From a virus (taxonomy: Duplodnaviria > Heunggongvirae > Uroviricota > Caudoviricetes), in IMG/VR virus record IMGVR_UViG_2606217104_000008: DNA of 9,412 nucleotides. One strand, given 5' to 3'. The notes under the pieces are model-generated. The model saw only the letters and a program-made list of their open reading frames with translations, did no database searches and was not told the DNA's origin. Positions 2,529 to 6,038 of this stretch are shown one piece after another (within the stretch, counting starts at the first letter, position 1; each line of letters starts with the position of its first letter). The position numbers and the translations under genes were made by a program.

Positions 2529-3889
2529 TTTCGCAGTATCCCCCTGAACATCGCCTTCACCGCATCACGCTCTGTTTCGCTTATGGCCTTATTACCGTCA
2601 GATGCGCCCTCCTGGCGTGTGCCTGACGACGTTTTCCCGGAAGACGCGAACGGATCCTCACGGGCATCACGACGGGACAGCGCCTCCAGACTGTAGTTCT
2701 GCTGCTGAAGATACAGTGCATCACCGCCGGCAAGGGGCGGCAGGTTCTCACGTTTACGGGCCTCATTGGGCGTGAGAAGCGTATTTTTCACCGATTCACC
2801 CAGCGTTTTCATGCGACGTTCGCTGTCCATTCTCAGCAGCGTGGTGACGTCAAACTCCGTACTCTCGTTTTCCCCCGTTTCCAGCGCCTCATCCAGTAAC
2901 AGTTCAATGGACTCAATCAGCGTCTGCAGGCACTGGGAATAATACTGCTGCTCCAGCGCCTCCACGTTGTCACTGGAAGGCGGGTGGCCAACGCCAATCT
3001 TGTAGGCCGGGACACGGAACACCGAACAGACAATTTCAGCGGTCATCTTCAGTTGTTCCACCGTCTGCGCATCCACCGGTGAAAACGTCGTGGGGTTGTA
3101 TTTTGCCCCGTTGCTCAGAATGGCCGTTTTCCCCGCATTTTCGCCGGTATACCCGCTGTCCCAGTTGCTCTTCAGTTTTTTCGCATTTTCTTCCGTTATA
3201 CTGCCGGGGATCTCAATCACCCCGGACGGCCTGCCGCCATTTCTGAAAAAAGACGTCGAATTTTCCTGAATATGATGCCCCTGCGTGGCCGCCAGCCCGG
3301 CGGCATACACCGGCGGCAACCCTATAAGCGGATGAAAAAAACAGTTAAACCGGTCGTGGATCACTTCCCGGGCAGGCACCGTCACCGCCTCCGTGATCCC
3401 GCAGTTCCGGTCCGGCGTGATGCGGTAGAACACCTCGCCGTCATCCGCCACCAGAGGTTCAACCCGGCTCCAGTCCAGAATACGCAGTTCTTTGATCTGC
3501 CCCCGGGAGTTACGGATTTTCAGCACCACCGTATTGCCGTGACGCAGTTTGGCGTTCAGCCACAGTTCAAAAAACTGGATACGATTCTGCTGTGCATTGG
3601 GACGACGACAGAGACGGGCAATATCCCCCTGCCGTTTTTCACGGCGGATCCCCTGTGTATCCGTCTGCATCAGGCGCAGCCGCATTTTGGCGATATCCTG
3701 GGATATCAGCGAAATGCAAGAAAACACCGCATGAAAGGAGAGGACACTTTCCGGATCGGCTTTCACCCCCTGCTGCCAGGCGCCGGCAAAGGGCTCAGCC
3801 ACCGCCTGAAACAGGCTGGTCCAGCCCACCTCTTTTACATCACGTCCTGATTTCTGGTTTTTTCGGGTTCGCCGCAAAAGGTTCCACAT
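2525..3889 (-). CDS. Phage portal protein, HK97 family
   Basis: 454-aa ORF with portal-typical segments (SFHAVFSCISLISQDIAKMRLRL, FFRNGGRPSGVIEIPG, NGAKY, ALYLQQQNYSLEAL). ATG at 3889 is the first ATG after an in-frame TGA, with GGAG 8 nt upstream. Confidence 0.85.
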   Translation of the reverse strand: MWNLLRRTRKNQKSGRDVKEVGWTSLFQAVAEPFAGAWQQGVKADPESVLSFHAVFSCISLISQDIAKMRLRLMQTDTQGIRREKRQGDIARLCRRPNAQQNRIQFFELWLNAKLRHGNTVVLKIRNSRGQIKELRILDWSRVEPLVADDGEVFYRITPDRNCGITEAVTVPAREVIHDRFNCFFHPLIGLPPVYAAGLAATQGHHIQENSTSFFRNGGRPSGVIEIPGSITEENAKKLKSNWDSGYTGENAGKTAILSNGAKYNPTTFSPVDAQTVEQLKMTAEIVCSVFRVPAYKIGVGHPPSSDNVEALEQQYYSQCLQTLIESIELLLDEALETGENESTEFDVTTLLRMDSERRMKTLGESVKNTLLTPNEARKRENLPPLAGGDALYLQQQNYSLEALSRRDAREDPFASSGKTSSGTRQEGASDGNKAISETERDAVKAMFRGILRK

Positions 3890-4056
3890 TCGCCATGCTC
3901 CGCATCACGTTTCTTTTTCTGACCTGCCGGACGTCGCGCTGTGATGTACTCCGCCTTCCCCAGGCGAACCAGCACCTCCGCACACGGCTGTGCCACATCA
4001 CGGATATCCCCGGCCCGGGCATCATGCGTGCCCTGCAGATACTGGATTTTTGCCAT
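3835..4056 (-). CDS. Hypothetical small protein (73 aa) between the capsid and portal genes; overlaps the first 55 nt of portal in another frame
   Basis: ORF MAKIQYLQGTHDARAGDIRDVAQPCAEVLVRLGKAEYITARRP... fills the gap left between the capsid stop (4101) and portal start (3889). Codon third-position GC is about 67% with host-preferred codons. No good Shine-Dalgarno within 5-10 nt of the ATG, so it may be spurious. Confidence 0.3.
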   Translation of the reverse strand: MAKIQYLQGTHDARAGDIRDVAQPCAEVLVRLGKAEYITARRPAGQKKKRDAEHGECGTFCGEPEKTRNQDVM

Positions 4057-4100
4057 CTGTTACTGCGGGAAGCTCGCGCCTCCCGCCCTCCTCATCAGAC

Positions 4101-6038
4101 TCAGCCACCGGACGCAGTTCCGTAGTTCACACCGGTGATCACCGCCACTGCCGCAGTACGGCGACGACGCCAGTTGATCCAGCGCTCCGCACGGATGGCC
4201 ACGCTGCCGGTCTGAAACATGGAGACCAGTTCCACCGGTGACGGTGTGCTGCTGTCGCTGGTCGGTTCAGACTGCATTTCCAGTGACGCTTCACGGGACA
4301 TATCCACTGCCACACCGCCGTCATCCGCCAGATAAATATCCGGGGCATTCACCAGCACCAGCTGGTCACCCACGTACTGGGAGACAATCACCGGCAGCCC
4401 CTGGAAGGTCCCGCCCAGCAAGGTCATGTCCGGATATTCCTTCTGACCCAGCGCATTTTTACGCATGGACAGTGCCAGGGCATTGGTGCTGGACATCAGC
4501 CAGACCGCACCGGTGGGCTGCAGGTTTGCTGCCACAAACTGGCCAAACGCCGCCTCTGCATCCGCATCCGGGTTACCGGTTGATGCCGTGCCCTTCACAT
4601 CATGGGTGATGGACGCCGGGGAGACATCTGCCACTGCGGCTTTTTTCGGGTCCACAAAGTCTGTGTCCAGACGCGCCACCACCGCTTCTGCCAGCGCATT
4701 ACGGACCAGCGCATCAGCTGCCGGACTGGAAAAACGGATCAGCTCTTCCGTCAGTACCGCAATGGCCGACACCTTCGCATGACTGAAGGTGATGGACTCA
4801 AAATCAAACTTCGTCAGGGGTCTGGCCTTACCCTCCCCCACCCAGCCGGCAGCACCGCCGGACACCTGGGCATGCACGCGGATATTGAACGGCACCTGAC
4901 GAAGTGCAGGGATCCCGCCCTGACCAAATCGCCCGATAATGGTCTGCGGACGCAGGTAATCAATAAAGTCCTGTGCGTATTCCTGATATTCAGACAGGCT
5001 GCCTGCCCACTGCGGATCCGTGGTGGTCCCTGCCCCCACCGCCGATTTCAGGACATGATGCAGACGGCTGTCATCCGGATACTGACGACGGGCCACTTCC
5101 AGGGCTTCAGAGCGGACACCTTTAGCCGCGGCCAGTGATTTGGCAAAGCGGGCGAAACCAATCCCCTTCTCCAGTTTCTGCTCAACACGGATCACCGGCG
5201 CTGAAGCCACCGTGGCCACATTCCCGTTACCGGCCTGTTTCACCGGCTGTGCCGTGGCGGCCTTACTGGTTTCCAGTTCACGCAGACGCTTCAGGTGCGC
5301 ATCCACCTGACGGATTTCCGCTGCGGTGTTGTCGTAGTGCTCTTCCTCTTCCACATCCAGTGTGCGGCCTTCCTCTGCGGCTTTGTTCATGATCTCCTCA
5401 AGGGAGGCTGCCAGCGCCGCACGCTTGTTTTCAAAACTTTTAATCTGTTCACCAGTATTCATTGCTGACTTTTCCTTATGAAAAGAGGTTATTGACTGTG
5501 CCGAAGCGCCGGCAGAAGATGCGATTTTCACCACCGGTTTCCGGTTGCCGGACGCGGCAGAAAACGGGCGGTCGTAAGATTTAATGGTCCGGATGGTGCA
5601 TTCCGCATTCGCGGGCACGGTGACGGCAGACACCTCCATCAGTTCCCAGCGCAGAAAATGCAGTCCGCCTCCGTCCAGAAAGGTGTATTCATGGGGACGG
5701 AAGCCCACGGACAGCCCCCTGACCAGCCCGGTCTTAATGGCCGCCCAGACCTCATCCAGCCGGGCAGCCAGTTGCGACGGCATATCCGGTACGGGCTTCA
5801 CCAGTGTTGCCGTGATTTCCAGCCCTTCGCTGACCCGGCGCACCGTACACTGCCCCACCGGGCGGGAATGGTCATGCTGCCAGAGAAACGGGATCGCACT
5901 GCCAAACTCCGCGCCCTCCGGCTCCAGGATGTCACCATCCCGATCCGGAGAAGGCGTTGACGCAATCCCGGTGATCACCCGTTCATCCTCACTGAAGGAT
6001 TTCACCGTCAGCAGGGAACAGGCCCGTTTAAGAGTCAC
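4101..6038 (-). CDS. Prohead protease - scaffold (delta) domain - major capsid protein fusion (HK97-fold capsid with N-terminal HK97-family prohead protease)
   Basis: 645-aa ORF. N-terminus (ITGIASTPSPDRDGDILEPEGAEF...LWQHDHSRPVG) matches the HK97 prohead protease (S78/U35) pattern. The middle is charged and coiled-coil-like (EEEEHYDNTAAEIRQVDAHLKRLRELE). The C-terminal ~340 aa look like an HK97-type major capsid protein (...LVLVNAPDIYLADDGGVAVDMSREASLEM...). Start is GTG at 6038 with AGGAGG 5 nt upstream. Confidence 0.85.
   Translation of the reverse strand: MTLKRACSLLTVKSFSEDERVITGIASTPSPDRDGDILEPEGAEFGSAIPFLWQHDHSRPVGQCTVRRVSEGLEITATLVKPVPDMPSQLAARLDEVWAAIKTGLVRGLSVGFRPHEYTFLDGGGLHFLRWELMEVSAVTVPANAECTIRTIKSYDRPFSAASGNRKPVVKIASSAGASAQSITSFHKEKSAMNTGEQIKSFENKRAALAASLEEIMNKAAEEGRTLDVEEEEHYDNTAAEIRQVDAHLKRLRELETSKAATAQPVKQAGNGNVATVASAPVIRVEQKLEKGIGFARFAKSLAAAKGVRSEALEVARRQYPDDSRLHHVLKSAVGAGTTTDPQWAGSLSEYQEYAQDFIDYLRPQTIIGRFGQGGIPALRQVPFNIRVHAQVSGGAAGWVGEGKARPLTKFDFESITFSHAKVSAIAVLTEELIRFSSPAADALVRNALAEAVVARLDTDFVDPKKAAVADVSPASITHDVKGTASTGNPDADAEAAFGQFVAANLQPTGAVWLMSSTNALALSMRKNALGQKEYPDMTLLGGTFQGLPVIVSQYVGDQLVLVNAPDIYLADDGGVAVDMSREASLEMQSEPTSDSSTPSPVELVSMFQTGSVAIRAERWINWRRRRTAAVAVITGVNYGTASGG

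Follow-up and report, generated by a model that had tools for sequence, protein, structure and literature searches.

Does the short interval between the capsid and portal genes of a tailed phage hold a genuine gene and, if so, how is it translated and what might its product do? This question is raised by a 9,412-nucleotide (nt) stretch of Caudoviricetes DNA, IMG/VR record IMGVR_UViG_2606217104_000008, which is referred to here as the window. Its list of open reading frames (ORFs) includes a 73-amino-acid (aa) ORF with an ATG start at 4056-3835 on the minus strand. A protease-capsid fusion gene (6038-4101) lies upstream and the portal gene (3889-2525) lies downstream, both on the same strand. 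The capsid-portal gap (4100-3890) is 211 nt long, and the ORF overlaps the portal gene in a different frame for 55 nt (3889-3835). A first-pass annotation of the window had reported these coordinates, a gap of about 210 nt and the 55-nt out-of-frame overlap, all exact on re-reading, and had suggested either a small head-assembly protein or regulatory RNA in the gap. The substitution patterns described below indicate that the ORF is almost certainly a real coding gene.

The length of the ORF alone is within chance. With a threshold of 40 aa, 80 ORFs are found in the 9.4-kb window, and the same spot is crossed on both strands by ORFs 61-177 aa long. Codon usage was scored with the neighbouring phage genes as the reference, for which windows of real genes gave 0.29 +/- 0.26 in frame and -0.21 +/- 0.23 out of frame. 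The ORF frame scored 0.447 bits/codon, the best of the six frames, and the codon usage had been correctly described as coding-like. Selection was then examined at two evolutionary distances. Among 14 genera-level sequences, the ratio of nonsynonymous to synonymous substitution rates (dN/dS) for codons 1-39 was 0.13 in the ORF frame vs 1.26 and 1.40 in the other two frames, and identity was 0.48 at third codon positions vs 0.70 and 0.77 at first and second positions. Among 80 E. coli-type copies (41 distinct), the corresponding ratio for polymorphisms (pN/pS) over codons 1-40 was 0.185, vs 2.66 and 1.29 in the other frames. The ORF is intact in 79/80 of these copies, and also, at 55-58 aa, in 79/79 further viral loci that could be scored. 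Purifying selection is confined to the ORF frame and orthologues are present across genera, which upholds the earlier suggestion of a genuine gene. For the conserved part of the protein, no pattern of relatives with frameshifts or stops in the ORF and intact flanking genes was found; the frameshifted variants in the protein database mostly change the tail only. Three plus-strand ORFs, 3592-4125, 3941-4138 and 3990-4241 (177, 65 and 83 aa), were considered as the real gene and rejected, because selection follows the minus-strand frame and the plus-strand codon scores are lower. They lie antisense to the small gene and to the adjoining start of the portal gene and end of the capsid gene, and are most likely a side effect of coding on the opposite strand.

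At the DNA level the window shares 92-98% identity with Stx1/Stx2-converting prophages of E. coli and related ones, including BP-4795, 2851, YYZ-2008, JLK-2012 and the genus Sawaravirus, and DNA of this type is present in 1244/5426 complete E. coli genomes. The small gene is the same gene as in these phages. It is already annotated, without a function, as a 'hypothetical protein' in GenBank phage records and RefSeq, at the same coordinates relative to the portal gene. Its product belongs to PHROG 829, likewise a family with no assigned function: in hmmscan, residues 1-63 cover all 63 profile positions at E = 8.4e-39, and the orthologues from Kosakonia and Erwinia gave 3.5e-22 and 9.6e-9, respectively. 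Loci of relatives were fetched via the portal protein and so independently of the ORF. An ORF in the same slot was found in Pantoea, Kosakonia, Phytobacter, Atlantibacter, Citrobacter, Enterobacter, Entomohabitans, Buttiauxella and Erwinia, with 35-57% identity to the window protein by tblastn. A profile search added forms of 55-56 aa from Cronobacter, Klebsiella, Raoultella, Hafnia, Cedecea, Leclercia, Rahnella, Salmonella and others.

The window protein has zero matches in Pfam and NCBIfam. More distant relatives were found in alphaproteobacterial prophages with the gene order TerL, protease-capsid, x and portal, where slot x holds a protein of 85-130 aa. These slot-x proteins match the Pfam family DUF7210 (19/74 family members, best E = 1.1e-6), and hhalign aligns their N-terminal domain with the enterobacterial short form at a probability of 76% (E = 2.3e-5). 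DUF7210 itself (PF23843, gathering score 27 bits) gives no match to the window protein or to the short forms from Enterobacterales even at E <= 10, so that the link to this family is indirect and runs via the alphaproteobacterial same-slot homologues. The family profile collects 1328 clusters at 50% identity. A hidden Markov model profile searched against PDB sequences gave chance-level matches only (E > 0.2), and literature searches on DUF7210, PHROG 829 and the peptide sequence gave no result.

The conserved part of the protein comprises residues 1-40 only (MAKIRYLQxTHDxxxGDxxxVxxxCAxVLVxLGKAEY). In relatives this part is followed by a tail that is rich in Gly, Lys and Arg, carries a net charge of +4 to +5 and varies in length and sequence. 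Codons 41-55 of the window ORF are weakly constrained (pN/pS 0.46). Part of that constraint probably belongs to the portal gene, whose own GGAG at 3901-3898 lies inside the tail codons, 8 nt 5' of the portal ATG. In 80/80 viral loci that are not of the E. coli type, and in most genome loci, the last base of the small gene's stop codon is also the first base of the portal ATG (TGATG or TAATG). This stop-start overlap is the classic arrangement for translational coupling. Alignment of the junction shows that the E. coli lineage has GAATG at this place (GAA at 3891-3889, portal ATG at 3889-3887). Because the stop has been lost, with GAA in place of TGA or TAA, the ORF frame continues for 18 codons into the portal gene, as far as a TAA at 3837-3835. 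Among the E. coli-type copies, codons 56-73 gave pN/pS of 1.30 in the ORF frame vs 0.105 in the portal frame, and this extension is disordered in the AlphaFold2 (AF2) model.

The overlap with the portal gene, which had been reported together with the gap, is therefore a lineage-specific stop loss and not a conserved feature: it is absent from all 80 of the related viral loci, and its codons are unselected in the ORF frame. A functional dual-coding pair was considered and rejected, as purifying selection in the overlap was found for the portal frame only. To judge from the junction and the codons beyond it, the overlap very probably originated by stop loss and is neutral. In the ancestral state the gene would have ended on the portal ATG (TGATG), coupling portal translation to the small gene. 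The stop would then have changed to GAA in the E. coli prophage lineage, where ribosomes would run 18 codons into the portal gene and produce the extension as an unselected by-product.

The 44 nt between the capsid stop and the ATG have a conserved layout. The leader reads, in order, TGA, GUCUGAU, GAGGAGG, a hairpin composed of GCGGGAGGC, GCGA and GCUUCCCGC, then AGUAACAG and AUG. The minimum free energy (MFE) of the hairpin in a 59-nt context is -22.1 kcal/mol (z = -3.17). The stem is kept in every E. coli haplotype; the 4086/4065 pair changes from G-C to A-U, and another pair from G-U to G-C. Across 19 Enterobacterales sequences 83% of the cells are paired vs 48-58% with slid partners, and 4 pairs have changed on both sides. 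A further 44 distinct upstream regions all have the form GGAGG-GCGGGG-loop-CCCCGC(C), one of them with a GCGAGG/CCTCGC double change. The suggestion of regulatory RNA in the gap thus holds for one part of it, a conserved hairpin with compensatory changes upstream of the ATG, but not for the remainder of 3890-4100, which is coding and not unusually folded: the whole gap (231 nt folded) is unremarkable (z = -1.69), and the 22-nt hairpin is its one conspicuous structure.

GGAG(G) lies immediately 5' of the stem in 65/65 distinct upstream regions, and the bases between the capsid stop and GGAGG are poorly conserved. The spacer between the stem and the ATG is 7-9 nt among relatives. No GGAG, GAGG, AGGA or GGGG was present at -15 to -4 in any of the 65 distinct sequences. 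The ORF had been described as lacking a strong ribosome-binding site (RBS), which is correct at canonical spacing, where no tetramer resembling a Shine-Dalgarno (SD) sequence occurs, but overlooks a strong GAGGAGG 30 nt upstream, 5' of the hairpin. Initiation via a split RBS would account for this layout, and on the sequence evidence we put its chances at about even. The ribosome would bind GGAGG 30 nt upstream, and the 22-nt hairpin would loop out the intervening RNA to leave an effective spacing of 8 nt. The hairpin would probably also mark or stabilise the 3' end of the capsid message. Simple stop-start coupling to the capsid gene, as might be read from the first-pass annotation, is unlikely, because the gap of 32-44 nt varies in length modulo 3 and has the hairpin inside it. 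Readthrough or frameshifting from the capsid gene into the ORF was rejected, because the intergenic length is 44, 39, 38, 37, 35, 33 or 32 nt depending on the taxon and gives no constant frame relation.

The hairpin was also examined as a possible transcript-level signal. The stem in the window runs into AGTAACAG and not into the T-run of an intrinsic terminator, and a scan called no minus-strand terminator or promoter in the gap. Relatives have a partial T-tract after the stem, either ATTTTGC or ACTTTTTCT. An Rfam search of 3600-4300 returned only a chance microRNA match on the opposite strand. When the E. coli-type leader is folded to its MFE, GUCUG (4096-4100) pairs with CAGAU (4056-4060, including the A and U of the start codon) and encloses the SD and the hairpin. 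This outer pairing is probably not conserved, as the spacer differs in other E. coli haplotypes and genera.

A strong 10-12-bp GC hairpin right 3' of the capsid stop, followed by a canonical SD, was present in 9/9 alphaproteobacterial loci inspected. At a Sinorhizobium medicae locus the 5' arm of the stem consists of GGAGGCGGGG, with GGAGG within the stem, and this arrangement is a possible ancestor of the enterobacterial GGAGG-GCGGGG layout. In phage lambda (NC_001416, 7161-7204) a GC hairpin, with a 7-bp stem and the loop UUCG (AUGGCCC-UUCG-GGGCCAU), and then UGUUUCUCU lie between E and FI, before the FI SD, GGAGGAG. This is the same layout of capsid gene, hairpin and small gene as in the window. 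Since both the alphaproteobacterial relatives and lambda combine the hairpin with a normal SD, its ancestral role was probably at the transcript level. We infer that the hairpin is primarily a transcript-level element, an attenuator or 3'-end stabiliser, which may later also have become a split-RBS bridge in Enterobacterales.

The structure of the protein was modelled with AlphaFold2 using a 74-sequence alignment. The model of the E. coli protein has strands at residues 2-6, 18-21 and 35-37 and a helix at 23-32, with a predicted local distance difference test score (pLDDT) of ~80, and then a disordered tail. Its Foldseek matches in the PDB (50 listed) are almost only N-domains of ribosomal protein bL9, over 40 columns with a root mean square deviation (rmsd) of 1.1-1.7 A, 25-32% identity, a target template modelling (TM) score of 0.6-0.8 and E-values of 0.08-1. 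These E-values are weak because the domain is tiny. Against predicted viral structures the same model matched numerous uncharacterised phage proteins of small size, one of them a DUF7210 protein. The model of an alphaproteobacterial homologue (pLDDT 88) has the same N-domain plus helices at 45-65 and 75-87. Its PDB matches include the GINS B-domain, the C-domain of lambda gpFI (2LSM), bL9 N-domains and YqbF (2HJQ). 2LSM ranked second, with E = 0.064 over 52 columns, an rmsd of 3.5 A and a target TM score of 0.60.

A viral homologue of the bL9 N-domain has been published, gp20 of Mycobacterium phage 32HC (Mizuno et al. 2019, PMC6375957). 32HC gp20 (12076-12336) matches Ribosomal_L9_N (7.4e-6, above cutoff) and DUF7210 (0.0021), and it shares the pattern ...AG[DE]xxDV...A...V...K.A.Y with the phage family. 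An hhalign comparison of the family with gp20 was not significant. The double match suggests that the Ribosomal_L9_N and DUF7210 Pfam families are related. The bL9 motif G-Y-A-R-N-[FY]-L is not kept in the phage family, which has P-C-A-E/R-V-L-V at this place (PCAEVLV in the window) when compared by eye in the hhalign register.

Position, fold and composition together point to a tentative function. In lambda FI is directly 3' of the capsid gene E, and the window ORF is directly 3' of its capsid gene, as in all relatives. The C-domain of gpFI reportedly binds the capsid protein, and Popovic and co-workers are said to have noted, in 2012, structurally similar prophage proteins without sequence similarity. 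The N-terminal region of lambda gpFI is helical and weakly SAP-like (E = 0.0018, short of the Pfam cutoff). The non-structural chaperone gpFI links the capsid to the complex of terminase and DNA, and efficient packaging in vivo depends on it (PMC13595911). In PBSX-like elements the gene directly after the capsid gene encodes YqbF (PMC11526630). The best reading of the window protein, which we favour tentatively and at rather less than even odds, is a gpFI-like non-structural packaging or assembly chaperone. Its folded domain would dock on the capsid protein, and its basic tail, in place of which distant relatives have a helix-loop-helix domain, would promote the initiation of packaging by engaging DNA or terminase. 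The small head-assembly protein suggested in the first-pass annotation would then be the product of a genuine gene under purifying selection, with a plausible role in assembly.

The explanation as a whole, which combines a head-module gene of PHROG 829, a gpFI-like role, a split RBS and a stop-loss overlap, may be right or wrong with about the same probability, and several observations weigh against it. 2LSM was not among the 50 matches listed for the lower-confidence model of the E. coli protein, and the gpFI match comes from the homologue only. Foldseek E-values are weak (0.02-1). Packaging_FI (PF14000) and Ribosomal_L9_N (PF01281) were unmatched by the window protein or the 74 family members (Pfam E <= 10 for L9), while the positive controls behaved as they should, with E. 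coli L9 residues 1-58 matching Ribosomal_L9_N at 2.3e-23 and lambda gpFI matching Packaging_FI at 4.8e-59. With hhalign the probability was 0.06-1.2% against an L9 N-domain alignment, consisting of E. coli L9 (checked against PDB) and two other sequences, and the comparison with lambda gpFI was not significant either, with a probability no higher than ~1%. The enterobacterial form is without the helical second domain of gpFI and of the distant relatives and has a 15-residue basic tail instead. As to the RNA, the ordinary SD 3' of the hairpin in alphaproteobacterial relatives and lambda means that GGAGG may survive upstream as a relic, one Sinorhizobium locus has GGAGG within the stem, and the terminator-like ATTTTGC follows the hairpin in many relatives. 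The last three points, with ACTTTTTCT after the stem in other enterobacterial relatives, also favour the view that the hairpin is only a terminator, an attenuator or an mRNA 3'-end stabiliser that raises capsid over downstream expression, with GGAGG unused and the ORF started weakly without an SD or by re-initiation. We regard this as possible although doubtful. The window has no T-run and is uncalled by the terminator scan, yet stem and GGAGG are retained with compensatory changes; GGAG(G) is present in every distinct upstream region while its upstream neighbours vary, and there is no other ORF for it to serve; and the spacer keeps to 7-9 nt. Both roles could also coexist. That the ORF itself is non-functional, with the gap being non-coding regulatory RNA or with translation serving portal coupling only and the peptide sequence being irrelevant, is extremely improbable. 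Chance ORFs of this length are common in the window, some E. coli copies have frameshifts and the E. coli protein has no Pfam or NCBIfam match, but the substitution pattern (dN/dS of 0.13 in the ORF frame only) contradicts this idea. The protein is also conserved across genera and, by profile, into Alphaproteobacteria, the domain of the homologue folds confidently in the model, and the listed frameshifts are mostly in the tail and come from a prophage population with many defective copies.

Two other roles for the protein were weighed against the gpFI-like chaperone. A minor virion or head-completion component, such as a cement, plug or DNA-end binder associated with the portal or capsid, would suit a head-module gene that was ancestrally coupled to the portal gene by TGATG, a basic tail that could touch packaged DNA, and strong purifying selection on the folded domain. 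We consider it unlikely. Among the 50 PDB matches listed per model, the phage proteins are only the gpFI C-domain, from a non-structural chaperone, and the prophage protein YqbF, and no solved structure of a virion is among them; the window already encodes the usual connectors (gp6-like, head completion protein and gp10-like); and the tail is labile, with total lengths of 51-73 aa and frameshifted tails tolerated in many copies. The top Foldseek matches, almost exclusively bL9 N-domains, raise the other candidate, an L9 N-domain mimic or RNA binder. Acting at the bL9 site of the ribosome or on an mRNA element such as its own upstream hairpin, it would tune, for example, tail-chaperone frameshifting or the capsid-to-portal ratio. 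The matches of 32HC gp20 to both Ribosomal_L9_N and DUF7210 and its shared pattern, the basic tail, and the GGAGGGCGGGG...CCCCGCC element, which is conserved in sequence beyond the need of a generic hairpin, are all consistent with such a protein. It is nevertheless very unlikely. There is no significant sequence similarity to Ribosomal_L9_N, the Arg-Asn pair of GYARNFL is lost (PCAEVLV), the fold is common to the GINS B-domain and the gpFI C-domain, which are not RNA binders, and a gene fixed in the capsid-portal slot is a better fit for morphogenesis. The loss of the GYARN motif and the morphogenetic gene context are what weaken this reading. Slightly less probable still is a specific version in which the protein would displace or mimic bL9 and so alter frameshifting or ribosome spacing on late mRNA, or would bind GGAGGGCGGGG...CCCCGCC and autoregulate the ratio of capsid, small protein and portal in the manner of ribosomal proteins.

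The features of the leader and the small gene are collected in the table below together with the neighbouring genes. The 353-aa ORF at 1467-2528 on the minus strand is named 'portal protein' in its GenBank, RefSeq and PHROG relatives, yet it has no Phage_portal match. It contains a 162-nt (54-aa) tandem repeat at 1933-2364 (2.7 copies), of which the NC_049941 homologue (407 aa) has one more copy, and it has a weak C-terminal match to CBM_5_12. It is probably a repeat protein of variable copy number that has been mis-named. Two loci of relatives are unusual. In a metagenomic relative, a 310-aa gene (8596-9528) matching Cys_Met_Meta_PP, a PLP (pyridoxal phosphate)-dependent enzyme family, is inserted among the head-tail connector genes of the module. 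At an Enterobacter bugandensis locus the portal frame (3001-3387) is shortened to 128 aa with the upstream small ORF and hairpin intact, and this prophage is apparently defective.

Table. Minus-strand genes, leader elements and parts of the small ORF in the window.
Feature	Coordinates	Strand	Remarks
Small terminase	8323-7760	-	
Large terminase	7763-6102	-	
Prohead protease + HK97-type major capsid fusion, 645 aa	6038-4101	-	Pfam Peptidase_S78 2.2e-8, Phage_capsid 6.9e-15; relatives annotated major capsid protein / prohead protease
SD-like GAGGAGG	4087-4093	-	30 nt 5' of ATG; abuts 5' side of hairpin; unpaired in MFE fold
GC-rich hairpin, 22 nt	4065-4086	-	9-bp stem, 4086-4078 with 4073-4065; GCGA loop, 4077-4074
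8-nt spacer AGTAACAG	4057-4064	-	From hairpin base to ATG; without SD-like sequence
Codons 1-40, conserved folded beta-beta-alpha-beta domain	3937-4056	-	pN/pS 0.185; AF2 pLDDT ~77-84
Codons 41-55, basic disordered tail ARRPAGQKKKRDAEHG	3892-3936	-	pLDDT < 50; pN/pS 0.46
Codons 56-73 + stop, E. coli-lineage extension over portal codons 1-18	3835-3891	-	GAA at 3891-3889 vs TGA/TAA of relatives
Portal, 454 aa	2525-3889	-	Pfam Phage_portal 6.5e-81; N-terminus MWN... kept among relatives
Repeat protein, 353 aa	2528-1467	-	
Further genes: gp6-like adaptor, head completion protein, gp10-like protein		-	Pfam

What is new here is the anatomy of the protein as domain plus tail, the stop-loss account of the overlap, the conserved SD-hairpin-AUG layout and a tentative connection, by structure, of the protein with gpFI, DUF7210 and the L9 N-domain. 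The gene is found in Stx-converting and related prophages of about a quarter of complete E. coli genomes, and it belongs to a very large uncharacterised family of small phage proteins. The tentative gpFI-like or L9-N-like link gives a common 'hypothetical protein' a testable function, and DUF7210, the viral 'bL9' of 2019 and gpFI-like proteins may form one structural class. If the SD-hairpin-AUG arrangement is true, it is a second independent split RBS in phages and a caution for gene callers that demand canonical SD spacing. The stop loss illustrates that an apparent overlapping gene can be a neutral by-product. If the protein were an RNA binder, the DUF7210-related family, with more than 1300 clusters, would represent widespread phage translational modulators hidden in head modules. 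The understanding of phage head assembly is unchanged, and we regard the outcome as a useful annotation result and not a surprise.

The window gene resembles lambda FI and B. subtilis yqbF in following the major capsid gene immediately, and lambda also in having a GC hairpin in the intergenic region between the capsid gene and the small gene. In Foldseek it was the homologue model whose small beta-beta-alpha-beta domain matched the gpFI C-domain and YqbF. The combination of this domain with a helix-loop-helix in distant relatives recalls that of the gpFI C-domain with a helical N-terminal region. In the alphaproteobacterial relatives, however, the order of the two modules appears to be reversed. 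Sequence similarity to gpFI is not detectable, and the window gene precedes the portal gene rather than head-closure genes. The fold and the order of elements (beta1, beta2, alpha, beta3) are the same as in the bL9 N-domain, but the window protein has no significant sequence or profile match to bL9, no GYARN motif and no long connecting helix or C-domain. The gene for 32HC gp20 differs in context, as it follows the gene for the major tail subunit and not a capsid gene.

For the leader, the closest known systems are T4 genes 38 and 25, in which a hairpin brings the SD closer to the AUG, with 22 nt reduced to 5 nt and 27 nt to 11 nt, respectively (Nivinskas et al. 1999; Malys and Nivinskas 2009; reviewed in PMC3014915). 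The window differs from T4 in that its hairpin lies directly after the major capsid gene, is terminator-like in many relatives and may be dual-purpose. In both cases the SD is too distant on the linear sequence (30 nt in the window; 22 and 27 nt in T4), a stable hairpin would bring it to a workable distance (8 nt; 5 and 11 nt in T4), and the arrangement is phylogenetically conserved within the phage group.

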